A stretch of 29,193 bases of DNA, from the IMG/VR virus record IMGVR_UViG_3300035532_000265, positions 1-29,193 of that record; one strand, written 5' to 3'. The notes below the pieces were generated by a model, which was given only the letters and a program-made list of their open reading frames with translations, was not told the DNA's origin and ran no database searches. The translations under genes and the position numbers were made by a program. The stretch is from a virus. Its lineage: Duplodnaviria > Caudoviricetes. Below, in pieces: positions 11,423-28,047 of this stretch (position 1 is its first letter; each line of letters opens with the position of its first letter).

Positions 11423-11647
11423 TCAGTTGTATGTTTTCTTCAGGCTCTCAAGGGCCTGCCTGGTATCAGTGTCACGAGGCCTGATGTCCCAGCCGCGGTC
11501 GTAGTTGCATACGACGTTGCCATTCCTCTTGAGCATCAGCTTGGAGATCCTTCCCTCGTCGATCCCGTATTCCGAACCCTCCCCGTACACCTTGATGCAG
11601 TACCTGAAAACGCTCTTCCCGATCTCCACAGTTCCTTCTCTCCACAT
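11423..11647 (-). CDS. Small conserved prophage protein (GIDEGRISKL...YDRGWD)
   Basis: 74 aa, ATG 11647 with RBS GGAGG; motif recurs in terminase-region cargo of Firmicutes-type prophages. Confidence 0.75.
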   Translation of the reverse strand: MWREGTVEIGKSVFRYCIKVYGEGSEYGIDEGRISKLMLKRNGNVVCNYDRGWDIRPRDTDTRQALESLKKTYN

Positions 11648-11675
11648 GCTCTTGCCTCCGTGTCCGTTTTGTTGG

Positions 11676-11717
11676 TGTATATATCCCTCAAATCGGAAAC
11701 TATAGCAACTGTATATA
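11676..11717 (-). promoter_or_regulatory. Repeated promoter-like motif, copy 1
   Basis: TATATACAGTTGCTATAGTTTCCGATTTGAGGGATATATACA; 32/42 identical without gaps to 13425-13466. Confidence 0.6.
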
Positions 11718-11783
11718 GGGAAGAAATTTGAATATAGACACAATTGGTTTTTAGGTTTCTCGGCGGTAGGAGGGGATTCCCTG

Positions 11784-11963
11784 TCAGCCTTCGCCGGTGA
11801 GTATGAAGTGAGCGTATTCCCTTGAGTTGTCCCCATCAAGGTAGTCGACAAGTTCCATAAGTCCCATCTGGGAGGCGATCCACTGGACCGCCCCCGTGTT
11901 GAACATGTTCGTCAGACCGCTGTCACGTACCTTCAGGATCTGGTCCTTGATCTGCTCAGTCAT
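11784..11963 (-). CDS. DUF5049-like small protein
   Basis: MTEQIKDQILKVRDSGLTNMF...YAHFILTGE, 59 aa, start overlaps the GGCT stop. Confidence 0.75.
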   Translation of the reverse strand: MTEQIKDQILKVRDSGLTNMFNTGAVQWIASQMGLMELVDYLDGDNSREYAHFILTGEG

Positions 11964-12402
11964 CGCCGGCCTCCATCGATTCCATAACCGCCTGCTTGAG
12001 GATATCCTCATCGAAGCCGCAGTCGTAGTAACCATCAAGGATGGTCGAGTAATAGTATGCATCCGGCATAGCCAGCGGAGGTCCTTCGTTCATGACGTAG
12101 GCCATCGCCACCAGCTCATCACCGTCCAGATTCACCATCAGTTTCTTCTTTCGATACAGATGGGGGTGACCTTCGTAGCGGTCCAAGGCCTTCTCGCACT
12201 TCTCGGTGATCTGCCAAAGGAGCACCGGAACCCTTGCACCCCGTTTCATCTCGATGGTGGCCACTCCAGTATGTCGGCCTCCCCTAAACAACAGCTGATA
12301 ATCGTGCAGTACCGTTGTGCCGATGACTGCGGCATCGGGGCATCGCTCTCCCATCTGTTCGAGGTTCAGGTTGCTTCCATAGGCCAGGTAGACTTTCTTC
12401 AT
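11956..12402 (-). CDS. Gamma-glutamylcyclotransferase (AIG2-like) family protein
   Basis: YLAYGSNL and LDRYEG signature motifs. Confidence 0.92.
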   Translation of the reverse strand: MKKVYLAYGSNLNLEQMGERCPDAAVIGTTVLHDYQLLFRGGRHTGVATIEMKRGARVPVLLWQITEKCEKALDRYEGHPHLYRKKKLMVNLDGDELVAMAYVMNEGPPLAMPDAYYYSTILDGYYDCGFDEDILKQAVMESMEAGDD

Positions 12403-12482
12403 CGTTGTTACACTCCTTCACTTGGTCTTCTACCACCCCAAGGGCGGTCGTCCCGCCCTCAGAGCCTTGTCAGGTCGCCCCT

Positions 12483-13388
12483 TTAGGCGGCAACACGCCG
12501 TCTCCATGCCGCTGAGCCGGTGAGGCGCTTGGTCAGGTGCTCGCGGCAGGAGCGGAACTCGTCGCCGATGAAGCCGATGCGGTTGAGGTAGGTGCGCATC
12601 GCGAACTTCTCGTTCTCGGCCTGGGGCTTCCTGGTGCTCGCCGAGCTTTGTGTGAGCGCCTGGGTGTTCAGCGCAAGGGCAAGGACGATGTAGCTTCTGA
12701 CCTCTCCGGCATGGAGGGTGCTGTTGAAACCGCGTAGCTCGACGGTCTTGTGGCCGTGGAAGAAAGAGTGCAGGTTCAAGAAATGGTAGCGGCTTTCGTG
12801 GTAGTGAGCATCCCGGTTTCCCCGGTAGCCTTCGTACCAGATGCTCTCGATCTTGGCGAAGGTGGTCGGCTTGGCGCGGTTCATGGTTGCCACAAGGTGC
12901 TCGTCCATCCTCTTGCAGTAGCGTGCCCGGTTGGCTTCTATGCCGAGGGCCTTGTAGAACAGGTCGTTTCGGGAATGGATGATGTTCACGAAGTTTCTGA
13001 TCGAGCGCGGTGTGTGGTCCTGCCCATCGAGGTGGATGTGGATGCCGCAGGAGCTGTTGGTGAAGGCCCCGGCCTTTCTCAGTGTCCTGATGACCTCCTG
13101 CAGGTTCTCGATGTCCTCTTCGTAGGTGAGGATCGGGCTGACCAGCTCGACGCTGTAGAGCCGGGAGGCGCTTTCCTTGATCCTGCCCCGCTTGGTTTCG
13201 CATCTGATGCTGCCATCGTAGGTGAATTTCCATTTCCTTCCGTCGTAGGTCTTCAGCTCATAGGTGTCGTAGTAGGAACCACCGTAGAGCAGCTCTCCGC
13301 CGAGCACCGTCTGTGCAGCCTGTGCTGCCTCCCTGCGGGTGATGCCTGTCATCTCGATCTCGATTCCGAACCGTGTTGTCTTTTCCAT
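12483..13388 (-). CDS. Putative amidoligase (COOH-NH2 ligase, Amidoligase_2 type)
   Basis: FGIEIE, DGSI, ELVSPIL, SCGIHIH, RY..LN, TVELR motifs. ATG 13388 with RBS AGAGGT. Confidence 0.9.
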   Translation of the reverse strand: MEKTTRFGIEIEMTGITRREAAQAAQTVLGGELLYGGSYYDTYELKTYDGRKWKFTYDGSIRCETKRGRIKESASRLYSVELVSPILTYEEDIENLQEVIRTLRKAGAFTNSSCGIHIHLDGQDHTPRSIRNFVNIIHSRNDLFYKALGIEANRARYCKRMDEHLVATMNRAKPTTFAKIESIWYEGYRGNRDAHYHESRYHFLNLHSFFHGHKTVELRGFNSTLHAGEVRSYIVLALALNTQALTQSSASTRKPQAENEKFAMRTYLNRIGFIGDEFRSCREHLTKRLTGSAAWRRRVAA

Positions 13389-13424
13389 GCCGTCTACCTC
13401 TCTTTGGTGTGTTTTTCTTCGTAC

Positions 13425-13466
13425 TGTAGTAATCACTCAAAGAGGGATATATAGCAAGTGTATATA
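13425..13466 (-). promoter_or_regulatory. Repeated promoter-like motif, copy 2
   Basis: TATATACACTTGCTATATATCCCTCTTTGAGTGATTACTACA, upstream of the amidoligase. Confidence 0.6.
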
Positions 13467-13535
13467 TGCAAATAAGATACACTAATTTTATATTATGAAT
13501 GGATCGAATTTTTGTTGCCTTTTTGCGGACCCCGT

Positions 13536-14345
13536 ATGACAATGCATGAGGTTTCCAACCCGGATTCCATACCAGAAACAACCAAGGAGATCCTCTTGAG
13601 CAACACCAATTCGATATTCACGATGCATGATGTGCCCGTTTTCAGGGCACTGGACAGTGTCAGCATGAAAACCTTCCAGCTCCTCATGGGCTGCGGTACG
13701 ATCGACCCGGTCAATCCATCGCTCTTCGTGCTGGGCCTTGGAGAGACCGAACACCTGTATGAGGCTGAAATGCTCGTCCTGGAACTGAGCCCGCATTCAG
13801 TGCGAGTGATGGAGGTCGGCAAGGCAGCCCTGGGTGATCTTCCTACCTTCGAGATGAACCTCGAGCCTCTGTTCGCCCTGATGGGACAGGCCTGTCCGTC
13901 CCTGCTGCTCTCGCCTACGATGCTGCCTCCGATGATCGTGGAGAAGCTGTACCATCTGTACTTCCGTTCACGAAACGACGGCTGGCGGCTCCTTGAGGGT
14001 GTGAGATGCTATCCGGGTAACCCGTTCAAACGAGTGAGAAGAGAGCTTGGGGCACGATACAATGCCTCCGGCCCATTGAAGGACCGAAGGCTGGAAAGAG
14101 ATGAGGCAACGGAACTGGCATCGCTGTTGCTTGAAAAAAGGACCAGCGATATGGAATGGAAGACCTTCATCCTTTCATGGGGCGACGCCGCCAGCAATGC
14201 ACTTGATGAGGATCCGTCGACCCTTGTCATGAGCCTTGAGGATTTCCTTTCCCTTTACGACGACCTTCAGGAAACCTGCCGTCTCAAGTGGAAAAGGCAC
14301 ACTAGAAGATCTTATGCCGGGGGATCTCCTCACCCGGTTTCCTGA
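13536..14345 (+). CDS. Hypothetical protein (only plus-strand gene in the prophage)
   Basis: About 270 codons with coding-like codon use and no competing long minus-strand ORF. Start uncertain (13512, 13536 or 13542). No recognised motif. Confidence 0.7.
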   Translation: MTMHEVSNPDSIPETTKEILLSNTNSIFTMHDVPVFRALDSVSMKTFQLLMGCGTIDPVNPSLFVLGLGETEHLYEAEMLVLELSPHSVRVMEVGKAALGDLPTFEMNLEPLFALMGQACPSLLLSPTMLPPMIVEKLYHLYFRSRNDGWRLLEGVRCYPGNPFKRVRRELGARYNASGPLKDRRLERDEATELASLLLEKRTSDMEWKTFILSWGDAASNALDEDPSTLVMSLEDFLSLYDDLQETCRLKWKRHTRRSYAGGSPHPVS

Positions 14346-14550
14346 CCATGTCGACACCCGGCACCACACCCAGTGTCGAGCCGGTCTCCCAGGCAACGTG
14401 CATGGTCCCAATGTCGTCCACCTGGATCACGACTCCCTTGGTCCCCTTGGGTGGGGCTTGCTCGTCATCCATGTGCACCAGCTCAACCGTACATCCCTTT
14501 GGGTATTGGAGTTTGAGTACCTCAATTCGTTTCTTGTTCATCTCATCCAT
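14302..14550 (-). CDS. DUF4314 family protein
   Basis: YPKGCTVELVHMDDEQAPPKGTKGVVIQVDDIGTMHVAWETGSTLGVVPGVD pattern; RBS AGGAGG. Confidence 0.85.
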   Translation of the reverse strand: MDEMNKKRIEVLKLQYPKGCTVELVHMDDEQAPPKGTKGVVIQVDDIGTMHVAWETGSTLGVVPGVDMVRKPGEEIPRHKIF

Positions 14551-14614: not shown

Positions 14615-14977
14615 CTAAGGTTTTGACAACGCCTCCAAGATAAGGCCGATCTGGCGCAGGTATTGCTCGTAGCGGTGAGCGAAAAGCGGAAGTTCGTTCT
14701 CCCCGTAGTCCAGAAGCTTGTCGGCATCCGTTTCCGATATGCAGTACAATCCATTCTGGTATGTCCAGTTCAGGGTGGGGAAGGCCGGGATCGTCGGAGC
14801 CTCGGGTGCCATCGAGACCAGAACCTGGCGATATGGGTCATTCTCCTGTCCTGTTGGCACGCTCGTGCAGCCGGTTGAGACGATCAATGCGAGCAGCAGC
14901 ATCACCGCTTTCAGGAGGTTCGATCTTTTCAGGCGGTTTTTCTTGGGTGATGGTGGTGATCTTCTGCTGTACTTCAT
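14615..14977 (-). CDS. Lipoprotein, o-spanin (Rz1-like) candidate
   Basis: Basic n-region, hydrophobic h-region, IVSTG-C lipobox, Pro-rich APEAPTIPAFP. Starts 140 nt inside the upstream gene in another frame with its own GGAG RBS. Confidence 0.65.
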   Translation of the reverse strand: MKYSRRSPPSPKKNRLKRSNLLKAVMLLLALIVSTGCTSVPTGQENDPYRQVLVSMAPEAPTIPAFPTLNWTYQNGLYCISETDADKLLDYGENELPLFAHRYEQYLRQIGLILEALSKP

Positions 14978-15128
14978 CGATCTTCTCCAATTCCTGTTCT
15001 CGTTTCTTCACCGTAAATTGGGCTTGCTGGATATCCTTTTTCAGGTCCTTGGTCTTGTGTGCCTGCAATCGTGTGATCCCCAGCAACCCCAGGATGATGA
15101 GGATCAGCATCTGCATGATTTCATTCAT
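14838..15128 (-). CDS. i-spanin (Rz-like) candidate
   Basis: Single N-terminal TM helix, then a charged coiled coil, Pro linker and C-terminal helix. Confidence 0.62.
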   Translation of the reverse strand: MNEIMQMLILIILGLLGITRLQAHKTKDLKKDIQQAQFTVKKREQELEKIDEVQQKITTITQEKPPEKIEPPESGDAAARIDRLNRLHERANRTGE

Positions 15129-15432
15129 CGGCTTTTCTCTCCATAAACTTTTTGACCAGTGGTTTCCAGAATGCCATGCACGCAGGAAGCTGCAGCAGGT
15201 AGATCACAATGGTGTACAGGACCACCAGGTATGGCGTGGGGTTCAGGCCGCCGTCCATGCCGGTCCCCGCAACGATGCGGAATGTCACATACCCCAGGAG
15301 CGCCGAGCAGGCGAGGGCGACCAGCTTGATCTCGTTCTCGCTTGCCCTGTCACGGCGAAGGCTTTTCTTGTAGAGCTCCATCACCAAGCCTAAAAAGGCG
15401 GCGAAGGCAAGTAATATGGCACTGAGGATCAT
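15121..15432 (-). CDS. Holin candidate (3 TM, charged C-terminus)
   Basis: 103 aa, three hydrophobic segments, KKFMERKADE tail, translationally coupled to both neighbours. Confidence 0.55.
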   Translation of the reverse strand: MILSAILLAFAAFLGLVMELYKKSLRRDRASENEIKLVALACSALLGYVTFRIVAGTGMDGGLNPTPYLVVLYTIVIYLLQLPACMAFWKPLVKKFMERKADE

Positions 15433-15734
15433 GTATGCTCCCCCTTGCTACCAAGCAGCGACAGAAAGTAATCGTCCATCTTCTTTTCCTGCTCCTCGGA
15501 TTCTCCATTGATCTCATGGGTCCTAAGCGACTTGAAGATGACCTTGTCGTTCTCCAGTGCCATGACCAAGCCCATCTGGATCTTGGTGATGGTGGTCTTG
15601 ATTTCCTTAAGGTCCTTCGCATAGCCGTGGCGGTCGTCGCTCCGTTTTGCCAGTCGGTTGAGCAGCCACAGCACGATGCCTCCCGATCCGAACAGGCATA
15701 CCGCGAGAGTGGTGATCAGGGTGATTTCATCCAT
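15429..15734 (-). CDS. Single-TM coiled-coil protein (holin/antiholin or XhlA-like)
   Basis: ATG 15734, 101 aa: LAVCLFGSGGIVLWLL TM followed by a charged helix. Confidence 0.5.
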   Translation of the reverse strand: MDEITLITTLAVCLFGSGGIVLWLLNRLAKRSDDRHGYAKDLKEIKTTITKIQMGLVMALENDKVIFKSLRTHEINGESEEQEKKMDDYFLSLLGSKGEHT

Positions 15735-16971
15735 CCTGTGCCCCCTCGGTGGCGACTTCCTCGTAGGAGTAATCCAGTCCGTCGCGCTGCACGATGACCC
15801 CGGCTGAGGATCCGACAAGCTCGATATAGCGTTTGACGATGACGTCGCAATACTTCTCATCCAGCTCGATGGTGGCACAGCTCCGTTCGGTCTGCTCACA
15901 GGCGACGAGGGTGCTGCCGCTACCGCCGAACGGGTCGAGCACCAGCGTGTTGCTCATCGAGGAGTTCATGATCGGGTAGGCCAGGAGGGCCACCGGTTTC
16001 ATGGTAGGGTGTTCGCCGTTCTTCTTGGGTTTGTCGAATTCCCAGATGGTCGATTCCTTACGCCCGGTGTACCACAGGTGCTTGCCTTTCTTCTTCCATC
16101 CGAAGAGCACCGGCTCGTGCTGCCACTGGTAGGGCGAGCGGCCGAGCACCAGCGACTGCTTTTTCCAGATGCAGGTGCCCGAAAGGTAGAAGCCCGCCTC
16201 GCTGAATGCCTTGCGGAAGTTCAGCCCCTCAGTATCGGCATGGAACACGTAGATGGAAGCGTCGTCGGCCATATGATTTGCCGTGTTGGTGAAGGCATCG
16301 AGCAGGAACTGCAGAAAAGCATCGCCTGCCATATTGTCGTTCTTGATCTTGCCGGCCGAGCCCTCGTAATTGACGTTGTACGGCGGGTCGGTGACCACCA
16401 GGTTCGCCTTGGCACCTGCCATCAGCAGCTCGAAAGTCTCGGCCTTGGTGCTGTCACCACATACCAGGCGATGTTTACCCAGTTTCCATAGGTCCCCACT
16501 CTTGGTGAGCGCGGGCTTTTCCAGTTCTGCTTCCACGTCGAAGTCGTCGTCGTGCACGCCCTCGGCTAGCGAGTCCTTGAACAGGTCGTCGATCTCGGTC
16601 GGGTCGAAGCCGGTGAGCGATACGTCGAACTCCAGTCCCTGCAGATCGGTGATGAGCAAGGCCAGCTTGTCCTTGTCCCACTCGCCGCTGATCTTGTTCA
16701 GCGCGATGTTGAGGGCCTTCTCCTTGTCCTCGGAGAGATCCACGACCACGCACTCAAGTTCGGTATGACCCGCGTCCCTGAGAATTTTCAACCTCTGGTG
16801 GCCCCCTACGACCCGGCCGGTGGTCCTGTTCCAGATCACCGGCTCCACATAGCCGAACTGCTCGATGGAGCGCTTGAGCTTCTCATACTCGGCATCGCCG
16901 CTCTTGAGGTCCTTGCGCGGGTTGTAGTCAGCAGGTAGCAACTCATCGATGTGTTTCTGTTCAATGGTCAT
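15727..16971 (-). CDS. ParB-like N-terminal domain fused to an N6-adenine/N4-cytosine DNA methyltransferase (beta order)
   Basis: PADYNPR, FGYVEPVI, VVGGHQRL (ParB); TDPPYN catalytic motif precedes HPTMKP and LDPFGGSGST SAM-binding motif. Confidence 0.93.
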   Translation of the reverse strand: MTIEQKHIDELLPADYNPRKDLKSGDAEYEKLKRSIEQFGYVEPVIWNRTTGRVVGGHQRLKILRDAGHTELECVVVDLSEDKEKALNIALNKISGEWDKDKLALLITDLQGLEFDVSLTGFDPTEIDDLFKDSLAEGVHDDDFDVEAELEKPALTKSGDLWKLGKHRLVCGDSTKAETFELLMAGAKANLVVTDPPYNVNYEGSAGKIKNDNMAGDAFLQFLLDAFTNTANHMADDASIYVFHADTEGLNFRKAFSEAGFYLSGTCIWKKQSLVLGRSPYQWQHEPVLFGWKKKGKHLWYTGRKESTIWEFDKPKKNGEHPTMKPVALLAYPIMNSSMSNTLVLDPFGGSGSTLVACEQTERSCATIELDEKYCDVIVKRYIELVGSSAGVIVQRDGLDYSYEEVATEGAQDG

Positions 16972-18124
16972 GATCAAGTTCTCCCTTGAGCGCCTCTCTA
17001 TACCGCTCGCTCACCTGTTCCCATGCAAAGAGGGAGTTGCCGAAATGGCCGTAGCAGGAGGTAAGGTTGTATATGGGACTGCGCAGCCCCAACTCCTCGA
17101 TGATGTCCTTCGGCTTGAGGCTGAAGATTGTGCGAACCACCTCGGCGAGCTTTTCATCGTCCACCTTGCCGGTAGCGAAAGTGTGTACATTTACCGCGAC
17201 AGGTTCGGCCTTTCCGATTGCATACGAGATTGCTACCCCGCAGCGTTTGGCAAGGCCGGCTGAGACGATGTTCTTGGCGATCATGCGTGCCATGTAGGCT
17301 CCGCTCCTGTCCACCTTGGTCGCATCCTTTCCGCTGAAAGCACCGCCTCCGTGGAGTGCCAGACCTCCGTAGGTGTCCACCATGATCTTGCGACCTGTCA
17401 GGCCGGTGTCGGCACCAGGTCCGCCCTCAACGAAACGGCCGGATGGGTTGATGAGGATACGGGTGTGTGCATCGATGGGGAAGTGAATGAAGGCAGGCTC
17501 GAGCACCTTTTCGATGAGCTCGCCCTTGAGGGTGTCCAGATTCTTGTCACGCTCGTGCTGGACCGAGACGATGACGGCGGCAACCCTGACGGGAATGCCC
17601 TCATCGTACTCCACTGAAACCTGGGCCTTGCCGTCGCTGCGGATACCCATGATGGTTCCGTTCTTCCTGCACTTGTCCAGGATGCTGCAGATGCGGTGGG
17701 AGAGTTCAAGAGGCAAGGGGATGCAGGTGGGTGTCTCGTCGGTTGCATATCCGTACACCGTGCCCTGGTCCCCGGCTCCCAATTCATCCACCTTACCCTC
17801 GGCATCCCTGATCTCCAGGGCGGTATCGACGCCACCTGCAATATCCGAACTCTGGTTGTGGAGGAACACGCTGATGGTGAATTCCTTGGGGTTGTAGCCA
17901 CACTCTGCAAGGGCGGTCCGTACGGTTTGGCGTATGTTGACCTTGGTACGGCTGGTGATCTCTCCGGCGACGATGATCCGGCCCTTGGTCGCCATGACCT
18001 CGCAGGCCACGCGCGAATATGCATCGCTGCTTAGGCAGGCATCGAGTATCGAGTCGGCGATGTAGTCGCACAGCTTGTCGGGATGTCCCTGGCAGACACT
18101 CTCGGATGTGAGGTGGTTTTTCAT
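16961..18124 (-). CDS. metK: Methionine adenosyltransferase (SAM synthetase)
   Basis: SESVCQGHPDK, GAGDQG, DGKAQV, GGPGADTGLTGRKI, GGGAFSGKD..KVDRS and YGHFG all intact. Confidence 0.97.
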   Translation of the reverse strand: MKNHLTSESVCQGHPDKLCDYIADSILDACLSSDAYSRVACEVMATKGRIIVAGEITSRTKVNIRQTVRTALAECGYNPKEFTISVFLHNQSSDIAGGVDTALEIRDAEGKVDELGAGDQGTVYGYATDETPTCIPLPLELSHRICSILDKCRKNGTIMGIRSDGKAQVSVEYDEGIPVRVAAVIVSVQHERDKNLDTLKGELIEKVLEPAFIHFPIDAHTRILINPSGRFVEGGPGADTGLTGRKIMVDTYGGLALHGGGAFSGKDATKVDRSGAYMARMIAKNIVSAGLAKRCGVAISYAIGKAEPVAVNVHTFATGKVDDEKLAEVVRTIFSLKPKDIIEELGLRSPIYNLTSCYGHFGNSLFAWEQVSERYREALKGELDHDH

Positions 18125-25893: not shown

Positions 25894-28047
25894 ATGTCAG
25901 AAGGTTTAGATGAGAGAATTTTGAAGTCTTGGAAGTTGAATTCGAATATTGATGAAGTTAATTTTAAACAAAAGAATATTATATTTGGTCTAAACGGTTC
26001 AGGGAAAAGTTCTCTTGCGAATATACTACAAGCCAATTTTTTCAGAAAACATAATCCAAAGCATTTCCGAATTTTCAGTGAGAACTATGTGAAGGAAACC
26101 CTTTCACTGAAGGATGGCAGAATCCGCGGTGTAATCTCAAATTTTGGAAAGAAGAATGTAGATATTGAGCAGCAAATCGAAGGTAACCTGAGTGCAATCA
26201 ACGACCGGAAAGTACAGATGAACCGATATGATGAAAAAATAAAAGATTCTATTCAGACCACAGAAAAGTTCATGGAAGATGTTTTAAATCGAAGGAGGGG
26301 AACAAATAATAAAATTCACAATAAGCCTAAAGCAAAGACGGTACATGAGAAAGTCAATTTATGGATTAAGGATTATGACGACAGCATAAAATTATTTCCA
26401 GATGAAAATTATAATGAAATTACTGGTGATGCAAATTTTTCTGTGGAGAGTGAGAATGTTAATTTATGTATAGTTCCTGATACTATAGATATTAATAAGC
26501 TGAAGATTGAAAATTTGAGTGAGCTGCTCAGCAAAAATTTCAAGGATATTGATATTCCTAGCCAAGAAATAATTTCTTGGTTGGAAACGGGACTAAAAAT
26601 TCATAAGGGAAAAACAAAGTGCGAATTTTGTGGATCCTCAATCCATTACGATGATATTTATGATCATATAACCTCATATTTACAGAATGAGAAACAAAAG
26701 GCCTCTAGGCAGCTAACAGAGATTCATCACGAACTAGTGGCTATTCAACAAGTAGTTGAGGAATTAAAAAGGAATTTTGGTAAATATAGAGACTTGTTTC
26801 TTCAACAAGAGGATGACAATCATTTTAATGTAATAAGTGCCGCGGAAAGAGAGATTCATAATGCTCTCTCTGCTGTTGATTTGAAAACTGATAGGATGGA
26901 TTTATCAGTTTCAATTGAGATTGACTCACTTAAGAAAGCAATTCTAGATGTCAACAATAGCGTTAGATTCATAAAAGATTCTAAGATTGCCTACTCACAA
27001 AATATTCTTGAAAAGGTAAACCGGTTAGAGCTTCTTGTCAAAGGTGCTATTGGGTATGAATTAAAGAATTCAAAGATCGTTAATGAAAATTTAACAAAGA
27101 TTGCTGAGTGGGAAGATGAGGTCCAAAGACTTAAAAAGGAAAAGGCAGACCTTGAGAATAAGAATGAGATCCTTACAGCGGAAAAATCGGATTTGTCTAA
27201 TTTCGCCAGATTTTTGAATGCGACATTGAGGGATATGAACCTGGATTTCTTTCTCAAGTTGGATGGGGATGTATATCGTCTCGAACATAATGATGGAACC
27301 ACATTGCGACTAGATGATGTCAGTGAAGGAGAACGGAATTTGCTTTCATTGATTTATTTCTACTACGAAATGCTTGATGACAACGAAATCTCGTTGAAGG
27401 AAGATATTGAAGGCATTGTATTGGATGATCCAATATCCAGTTTAGATGACAATAATAAATTCTATATATTAGAACTAATAAAATCTCTGCTGGATTATGA
27501 TTTGCCTAAGATCTATATTCTCACTCACTCTTGGGATGATTTTTGTGCCATGACATATGGTCGGAATGATAGAGATACCTATGCATTTTTTGAGATTAAA
27601 AAGGAATCTCAAGTAAGCAGGATTAATGAAATTGAAGGATCCAAGCTACTAAGTCCATATATGCAAATGTATTGCGAGGTGGACGCTTTCTGCAACAAGA
27701 AAGTTGAAGAAATTCCTCCCCAAGAATCACTTCACATGCCAAATACGATGAGAAGAGTTTTGGAGGAGTATGTCAAATTCAATGTAAACCTAGACTATGC
27801 TACTGCAACTCATACTGGGGACATCGCTAAAGCCTTGTTCAAGTGTGAGATTAGTGATTTGTCAAATAGTAAGAAACAAAAACTTGATTTACTCCTTTCT
27901 GTTTGTAACATCTTATCACATAAGGCCACACATCCTCACAATCCATCGGAGATACATAAAGCAGCCAAATTTTTACGAAATACAATTAGAGAGTGTGATA
28001 AATACCATCATCTGAAAATGACTTGTTATAGTGCAAGAACTTCCTAG
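25894..28047 (+). CDS. RloC-like AAA_13 ABC/SMC-type ATPase with zinc hook and C-terminal HEPN-like domain
   Basis: Walker A GLNGSGKS, coiled coils around CEFC, signature VSEGER, Walker B/D-loop VLDDPISSLD, H-loop ILTH, NTMRRVLE and NILSH. AT-rich. Confidence 0.82.
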   Translation: MSEGLDERILKSWKLNSNIDEVNFKQKNIIFGLNGSGKSSLANILQANFFRKHNPKHFRIFSENYVKETLSLKDGRIRGVISNFGKKNVDIEQQIEGNLSAINDRKVQMNRYDEKIKDSIQTTEKFMEDVLNRRRGTNNKIHNKPKAKTVHEKVNLWIKDYDDSIKLFPDENYNEITGDANFSVESENVNLCIVPDTIDINKLKIENLSELLSKNFKDIDIPSQEIISWLETGLKIHKGKTKCEFCGSSIHYDDIYDHITSYLQNEKQKASRQLTEIHHELVAIQQVVEELKRNFGKYRDLFLQQEDDNHFNVISAAEREIHNALSAVDLKTDRMDLSVSIEIDSLKKAILDVNNSVRFIKDSKIAYSQNILEKVNRLELLVKGAIGYELKNSKIVNENLTKIAEWEDEVQRLKKEKADLENKNEILTAEKSDLSNFARFLNATLRDMNLDFFLKLDGDVYRLEHNDGTTLRLDDVSEGERNLLSLIYFYYEMLDDNEISLKEDIEGIVLDDPISSLDDNNKFYILELIKSLLDYDLPKIYILTHSWDDFCAMTYGRNDRDTYAFFEIKKESQVSRINEIEGSKLLSPYMQMYCEVDAFCNKKVEEIPPQESLHMPNTMRRVLEEYVKFNVNLDYATATHTGDIAKALFKCEISDLSNSKKQKLDLLLSVCNILSHKATHPHNPSEIHKAAKFLRNTIRECDKYHHLKMTCYSARTS

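Follow-up and report, generated by a model that had tools for sequence, protein, structure and literature searches.

Four small overlapping membrane genes of a tailed phage, ORF1 to ORF4, probably make up the whole lysis system of a Sphaerochaetaceae prophage, one without a phage-coded endolysin. When tailed phages lyse walled bacteria, an endolysin is regarded as always being involved. Natural spanins accompanied by a holin-like gene and no endolysin would make the timing of spanin fusion without a peptidoglycan mesh testable in culturable, free-living hosts, and the amount of wall in spherical spirochaetes likewise (Sphaerochaeta pleomorpha and S. associata carry members of the ORF3 cluster). 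Virion formation by these prophages is putative.

The phage and the setting of the cassette

The window, that is, the whole stretch of DNA analysed, is the whole of a virus record of 29,193 bases and a fragment of a phage, which breaks off inside the tail genes. The prophage occupies the minus strand in the order VapE-type primase/helicase, SNF2, HNH, terS, MetK, ParB-methylase and ORF1 to ORF4, followed by DUF4314, amidoligase, GGACT, terL, portal, ClpP, capsid, tail tube and a tail gene cut by the window end. The initial annotation placed the four genes between terS and terL, which is true but approximate: MetK and the ParB-methylase (15727..18124, minus strand), part of the backbone common to monoderm relatives, intervene on one side, and DUF4314, amidoligase, GGACT, DUF5049 and DUF7678 (11423..14550, minus strand), a backbone partly common to those relatives, on the other. 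ORF1 overlaps the methylase gene by 8 nt, and the ORF1/ORF2, ORF2/ORF3 and ORF3/ORF4 overlaps measure 4, 8 and 140 nt. The description of four overlapping membrane genes in a row holds for the window, which was compared with 54 distinct complete cassettes. Pooled dN/dS, computed for the window against 39 same-length relatives and, for ORF3 and ORF4, over their non-overlapping parts, lies between 0.11 and 0.33; the four ORFs are real genes under purifying selection.

A nucleotide search with the cassette against 50,697 GenBank phages gave no match, and a scan for promoters and terminators gave counts no different from chance expectation (5 vs 3.9 and 9 vs 6.4). Contigs from RNA libraries (four runs) were considered as evidence of expression and set aside, the region being evenly covered and possibly DNA. 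The prophage ends tried in G077 and G083 showed no att-like repeat, and those of G001 nothing longer than a 12-mer. Elsewhere in the window, on the plus strand, lie a low-GC gene for a 717-aa AAA_13 ATPase (25894-28047), probably defence cargo and present also in G005, and a 277-aa ORF without a family (13512-14345) that is found in only part of the relatives.

The rest of the phage had been likened to Firmicutes-type prophages, and TerL is indeed 79-84% identical to the proteins of Streptococcus, Gardnerella and Clostridia-type phages. Javan422 (Streptococcus), vB_Gva_AB1 (Gardnerella) and the Clostridia-type sister prophage G001:C20 have SNF2, HNH, terS, methylase, TerL, portal, ClpP and capsid in common with the window phage; vB_Gva_AB1 also has the VapE-like primase/helicase, and a recombinase block is common to AB1 and G001:C20. 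Their tail genes, however, are unlike those of the window phage, and all three carry a holin with an amidase or muramidase after the tail and lack ORF1 to ORF4. That a monoderm phage was refitted for a diderm host, as had been proposed, is likely, although the TerL tree (20 rows) does not settle monophyly or direction, the grouping of the three endolysin-bearing phages having a p-AU of 0.49. G001:C20 (L136-L138) itself carries Phage_holin_4_1, an Amidase_2-SPOR protein and a block of resistance-like cargo genes; it has no host flank, its TerL and methylase group with proteins from Dehalobacter, Proteiniclasticum and Desulfosporosinus, and it may be misbinned.

A probable overlapped spanin pair

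ORF3 (96 aa; 14838..15128, minus strand) is an i-spanin candidate composed of an N-terminal membrane helix (the single hydrophobic stretch, at 3-19), a coiled coil, a Pro linker and a conserved RLDRLN helix. ORF4 (120 aa, 9% Pro; 14615..14977, minus strand) is an o-spanin candidate with a 36-residue signal, Cys37 in the context VSTG-C37 (codon starting at 14869), a Pro-rich region, a beta-hairpin and a long C-terminal helix. Their non-overlapping parts have dN/dS values of 0.33 and 0.15, respectively. The genes overlap by 140 nt (14838..14977, minus strand), with ORF4 in the +1 frame of ORF3, and a GGAG Shine-Dalgarno-like site (14985..14988, minus strand) stands within ORF3, 7 nt before the ORF4 ATG. 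A Pro-rich lipoprotein starting 140 nt inside the preceding gene had been read from the window alone; across the cassettes both the +1 frame and a Cys after the hydrophobic stretch recur in 54 of 54, and the overlap is 140 nt in 44, with 122, 113 or 110 nt in the remaining ten. The exact [LVI][ASTVI][GAS]C lipobox occurs in 14 of the 54 ORF4 proteins; the window's STG-C departs from it at -3, a position at which 40 of the 54 have Ser, and the signal peptide is long (32-36 aa). The window's STG-C presumably fits the looser spirochaetal lipobox rule.

Matches to Rz-like PHROGs are weak for the window proteins (ORF3 to phrog_739, E 7.6e-4, with 3.5e-7 for the best homologue; ORF4 to phrog_12081, E 8.4e-5) and recur among the homologues of both, three of the spanin-position homologues tested being without one. 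Co-folding, which had been suggested as a check on the pair, predicts a complex of the ORF3 soluble part with mature ORF4, at 0.67 against 0.02 for the best control; runs agree in at least 96% of contacts, and partner pLDDT is at least 82. Among solved pairs 116 of 157 attain the mark applied, and among mismatched pairs 2 of 215; for alignments of our own making these counts are valid only roughly. The predicted interface joins ORF3 residues 46-87 to mature ORF4 residues 13-22 and 46-83, so that binding is predicted to run through the C-terminal halves, as the lambda model requires (PMC6139136). With these matches, the conserved frame and lipobox and the co-fold, the Rz/Rz1 architecture first assigned to the pair is borne out: by the sequence tests for two-component spanins, ORF3 and ORF4 look like an overlapped i-/o-spanin pair.

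The ORF4 model (pLDDT 88) shows a Pro-rich arm, a hairpin and, at the C-terminus, a helix of 37 residues. Foldseek searches with it against viral structures gave nothing at E <= 0.001, the named top rows including o-spanins and lipoproteins, none of them significant. One database protein, P0043, has ORF3 joined to mature ORF4; it is a single record and probably a product of frameshift or assembly.

The candidate holin genes

ORF2 (103 aa; 15121..15432, minus strand) is a holin candidate of an unnamed family. Its three membrane helices, seen as three hydrophobic peaks, its small size and its charged C-terminal end (KKFMERKADE) fit the holin shape of one to four membrane helices with a charged C-terminus, and its dN/dS is 0.20 (39 same-length relatives, pooled). 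The Pfam and PHROG searches matched no curated holin family. In a full profile search ORF2 has 44 relatives, counted at the 50% cluster level, and among the 31 scanned there was one weak Holin_LLH match (E 0.022); the ESM Atlas offers Phage_holin_5_2 (PF16079) at 0.88, as a lead only. ORF2 homologues also occupy the tail-end lysis position in unrelated phages. The holin that had been named in the window is therefore upheld in the shape and position of ORF2 and not in family membership, and ORF2 is best called holin-like. A database protein, P0412, has a terminase piece joined to an ORF2 homologue, again a single record and probably a frameshift or assembly product.

ORF1 (101 aa; 15429..15734, minus strand) has an N-terminal membrane helix (a single hydrophobic stretch, residues 6-22), a coiled coil and a conserved C-terminal helical hairpin. 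Its model is all-helical (pLDDT 82), its dN/dS is 0.11 over the same 39 relatives, and it has no Pfam match at E 0.01; the ESM neighbour, DUF7365 at 0.91, belongs to a family that the tool flags as probably wrong. In other, podovirus-type phages its place is taken by an unrelated XhlA/hemolysin-like protein. ORF1 is a candidate holin partner or timing regulator. For both genes a role in lysis is suggested by their coupling to the spanin pair and by their position in other phages.

The search for an endolysin

No peptidoglycan hydrolase was found among 42 ORFs of the window searched with Pfam or 38 searched with PHROGs, in agreement with the initial annotation. Because the record ends in the tail and the monoderm relatives place the endolysin after the tail, this fragment alone says nothing about endolysin absence. 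More telling are seven complete sister prophages (G001:C4, two on G002:C20, G002:C18, G077, G083 and G085), which run from regulator or polymerase genes to the recombinase block, two of the seven on single contigs of 3.55-3.59 Mb. The proteins of G077 and G083 are mostly about 87-99% like the window's, and G005 to G008 cover the tail end in part.

The Pfam/PHROG scan of cluster representatives and gap ORFs took in 24 of 25 core and 170 of 184 other cluster representatives, with 30 in PHROGs; the 14 left out comprise four ORFs of the window and ten shorter than 115 aa, most of which lie at flanks. A further 132 and 45 ORFs were scanned, mainly from 205 listed, those omitted lying mainly in host flanks, and of the ORFs shorter than 60-70 aa, or overlapped by others for most of their length, some were scanned. 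No amidase, muramidase, lytic transglycosylase, CHAP, NlpC/P60, M15 or M23 domain appeared in any scanned cassette-bearing prophage, tail proteins included, and the same scan detected the amidase of the positive control, G001:C20. Six-frame tblastn of 18 regions with 16 queries (11 amidase, lysozyme, GH25, SLT, M23 and SH3 proteins, three tail proteins, one lipase and one host amidase) likewise found a hydrolase only in that control. The search for an endolysin in full prophages, which had been named as a possible refutation, thus leaves the seven sisters without one: complete relatives carry no recognisable peptidoglycan hydrolase, and the canonical three-part cassette is not found in them.

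Across 151 genomes of the family, TerL_ATPase occurs in 34 and the ORF2 family in 22; of the endolysin families searched for, Amidase_2 occurs in 4, phage lysozyme in 4, SLT in 5, and GH25 and M15_4 in none. Most of the Amidase_2, lysozyme and SLT matches lie on short contigs, several of which we judge to be foreign- or plasmid-like from gene content and GC, and in the case of G001:C20 from taxonomy as well.

In the sister prophages the slot after the tail is taken up by variable cargo or by a Cys-rich ORF accompanied by a radical SAM gene. The latter block follows a 1105-aa fibre gene and consists of a 104-aa ORF, a 215-aa protein whose tail is a long Cys-rich repeat, and a radical SAM enzyme of 418 aa (L088:10294-12513; also L092, L107, L109, L110, L140 and L145); it resembles a peptide-modification cassette attached to the tail module. 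Between tail and recombinase G001 carries IS66, a lincosamide nucleotidyltransferase-like gene and an ABC ATPase (L088:12875 to L089:5253), and G003 has riboflavin, pantothenate, NAD and pyridoxal synthesis genes in place of the tail (L102:16180 to L103:12077). Two neighbours of the cassette, GGACT and amidoligase, were weighed as possible stand-ins for an endolysin and rejected: relatives that do have an endolysin also possess amidoligase-like genes, and some relatives with the cassette have them broken or not at all.

The cassette in other phage types

The genes recur in phages unrelated to that of the window. An SPP1-like prophage (G009:C1) has a tail that ends with ORF1-like and ORF2-like genes, followed by no spanin pair, and with a 78-aa SH3 ORF (L046:10353-10589) overlapping the holin-like gene. 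This ORF matches only positions 271-333 of the 336 of a phage amidase profile (E 6e-9) and is probably an endolysin stump that has lost its catalytic part. The podovirus-type prophages G089 and G157, the latter cut by a contig end, finish with an XhlA-like gene, an ORF2-like gene and spanin genes, and no hydrolase was found in G089. The cassette further accompanies tail genes or an integrase in G061, G057:C60, G009:C40 and G012:C3. G061 is a tail-only remnant in which a class 3 lipase stands directly upstream of XhlA-like, ORF2-like and spanin genes (L151:17340-19114), possibly a lipid-cutting stand-in at the endolysin position.

An element of about 9.5 kb (L157:11332 to L158:785) combines an integrase, an HTH gene, three tail/fibre genes and the four-gene cassette without head genes, and is satellite-like or a remnant; another four-gene cassette (L131:15026-16259) has an integrase and a HipA-like gene close by, and the 18.5 kb examined there contain neither head nor tail genes. 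ORF1-ORF2 occur without a spanin pair alongside at L041, L079, L081 and in G009:C1. The notion that spanin loss follows outer-membrane loss was rejected, the genome of L041 having BamA and G144, in which BamA was not found, having a full cassette.

The host and its wall

All 20 genome loci with ORF2 belong to Spirochaetales/Sphaerochaetaceae, their record titles reading Spirochaetales, Spirochaetae, Spirochaetaceae, Sphaerochaetaceae, Sphaerochaeta or Pleomorphochaeta. One has an ORF2 100% identical to that of the window and another a TerL 99.4% identical, and both S. pleomorpha Grapes and S. associata have proteins in the ORF3 90% cluster; the best DNA holders come from oil field, sludge and wastewater. 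We infer that the window's own host is one of the Sphaerochaetaceae. BamA was present in 5 of 5 genomes tested and in 3 of 4 more, and on this gene content the hosts are diderm. The Sphaerochaeta-like diderm host, offered at first as a guess, is supported.

Their wall genes are few. A class B PBP transpeptidase (FtsI), almost always single, occurs in 92 of 151 family genomes, with none seen in G002 or in 59 of the 151 (incomplete or further reduced); the motifs SxxK, SxN and KTG are intact in all three proteins read. The ftsI gene lies near ftsZ and, in G003, also near ftsW, ftsA, mraY and murG. At three of three host loci read it is divergent from a LysM-M23 gene (L129:11985-14874, L130:6757-9578, L132:8472-11381). 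A class A transglycosylase is found in 1 of 151 genomes and a single Amidase_3 in 96, and in five genomes of five there is a single SEDS gene (FtsW) and no MreC. The available part of PMC8406291 defines peptidoglycan-intermediate bacteria by at least one SEDS protein and a class B PBP with no class A PBP, describes their walls as of minimal abundance where tested, and in two Sphaerochaeta rows of its Table S1 gives ftsW 1, ftsI 1, rodA 0 and aPBP 0. On that gene-content definition, the hosts are peptidoglycan-intermediate.

PMC3372971 describes Sphaerochaeta as resistant to ampicillin, with a wall that is not rigid and without PBP genes, and electron microscopy there showed a cell wall. Because FtsI is intact and a wall was seen by electron microscopy (PMC3372971), some peptidoglycan is probably present, and the common occurrence of a single intact FtsI corrects the often-cited claim of that paper that Sphaerochaeta lack all penicillin-binding proteins. 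The initial annotation suggested that lysis may proceed without an endolysin in a host with little cross-linked wall and pointed to host taxonomy and PBP content among its checks. The endolysin-free relatives, the family assignment and the near absence of class A PBPs agree with it; the single class B PBP, intact in its motifs, and FtsW do not. Since one intact FtsI and FtsW are retained, 'no cross-linking' is too strong; the prediction is of a reduced wall and not of one without cross-links, and it may be septal or patchy.

Proposed mechanism and alternatives

Late in infection, ORF2, probably with ORF1, would build up in the inner membrane and at a set time kill or permeabilise it. ORF3, anchored in the inner membrane, and the predicted lipoprotein ORF4 would join by their C-terminal halves, bridge the periplasm and fuse both membranes in the manner of lambda Rz/Rz1, through a wall too sparse to block them. 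No enzyme would be needed, given that the predicted host wall is no more than sparse and of the division type, with one FtsW-FtsI pair, no class A PBP and no MreC. Several findings count against so simple an endolysin-free picture: the intact FtsI and the cell wall seen by electron microscopy; the lack of a curated holin family for ORF2; the host Amidase_3 and LysM-M23 proteins, which a phage could use; the four loci without an adjoining spanin pair, one of them (L041) in a genome with BamA; the class 3 lipase of G061; an endolysin-bearing sister of uncertain host in the G001 assembly; and the many phage ORFs without a family.

A broader proposal, towards which we are inclined to be sceptical, is that the tailed phages infecting an entire free-living diderm family have lost the endolysin, in at least three unrelated types and each time independently, so that membrane fusion is their sole means of exit. 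There would then be no peptidoglycan mesh holding the spanins back, and a new brake would be needed for timing, most likely ORF1/ORF2 acting directly on the spanin complex. If true, the phages report that Sphaerochaetaceae have only septal or patchy peptidoglycan.

The alternative that survives best, though we consider it unlikely, keeps the holin and spanins and has the wall cut by a borrowed host enzyme, with ORF1 or ORF2 switching on the division amidase (Amidase_3) or its LysM-M23 partner. The single Amidase_3 occurs in largely the same genomes as FtsI, LysM-M23 adjoins ftsI wherever that locus was read, and ORF1 has a soluble C-terminal part that is strongly conserved. Yet the cassette is present in G072, G078 and G144, which have no FtsI or Amidase_3 among the matches listed (the assemblies may be incomplete), and ORF1 is replaced in podovirus-type phages by the unrelated XhlA-like protein.

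An endolysin of an unrecognised family among the unannotated genes or tail proteins is improbable. Several conserved or variable ORFs do lack a Pfam or PHROG family, and the shortest and most overlapping ORFs were covered in part, as noted above. However, the unannotated core ORFs occupy positions in the head-tail and tail regions, only some relatives have the block after the fibre, which is the Cys-rich protein with its radical SAM enzyme, orf277 and orf168 are absent from many relatives, and the predicted fold of ORF1 is of helices only; moreover, each of three unrelated phage types would require its own unknown enzyme.

Very little probability attaches to an endolysin supplied in trans by a co-resident prophage such as G001:C20, which has holin and Amidase_2-SPOR genes, or to the prophages being defective: of the 22 genomes with the ORF2 family just 1 gave an Amidase_2 match, the G001:C20 contig, given its missing host flank and the clustering of its TerL and methylase, may be misbinned, and the cassette is under purifying selection beside intact head and tail genes. 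Equally remote is a non-lytic role for ORF1 and ORF2 (superinfection exclusion or membrane morons, for example), with only ORF3/ORF4 acting in exit, which the lack of a holin family match and the unusual place among methylase-amidoligase genes might suggest, but against which stand their translational coupling to the spanin pair, their relocation along with that pair to the tail end of unrelated phages and the ESM lead from ORF2 to a holin family.

Relation to known lysis systems

The four-gene system without an endolysin can be set beside several described ones, and a literature search (spanin or holin with absent endolysin or with Sphaerochaeta), whose coverage excludes most subscription papers, returned no paper on it. 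Overlapped spanins of the P2 LysB/LysC type, for which lambda Rz/Rz1 is the model, have in common with ORF3/ORF4 an N-terminal membrane helix and coiled coil, an overlapping Pro-rich lipoprotein gene in the +1 frame and a predicted C-terminal interaction, as far as the accessible sections of PMC6139136 describe them. In the spanin model of the same sections, the peptidoglycan mesh restrains the spanins until the endolysin removes it. The Sphaerochaetaceae phages, unlike the phages of those sections, have no endolysin and hence not that trigger, and a full mesh is probably absent. The long signal of ORF4 and its frequent Ser at -3 also differ from what these sections of PMC6139136 give for overlapped spanins.

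Phage WO of Wolbachia is the nearest precedent in the part of PMC9203015 available: a tailed temperate phage of a reduced-peptidoglycan host, with no endolysin and with a small 1-TM coiled-coil holin-like protein, reported there to lack a canonical three-part system and proposed to use a patatin phospholipase. In contrast to WO as so described (PMC9203015), the phages considered here keep classical two-component spanins, mostly have no lytic enzyme (the class 3 lipase of one remnant being the exception) and belong to free-living hosts. The peptidoglycan-intermediate bacteria in the available part of PMC8406291 have SEDS and class B PBP without class A PBP, as in these hosts, and are mainly intracellular, whereas the Sphaerochaetaceae are free-living and known here from gene content. 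The transposable prophages of Leptospira (PMC8705779) are spirochaete phages with a predicted holin and spanins and a lysis module often near the head genes; unlike the Sphaerochaetaceae phages, they have a putative endolysin, which is an M23 peptidase or a cysteine protease (PMC8705779).
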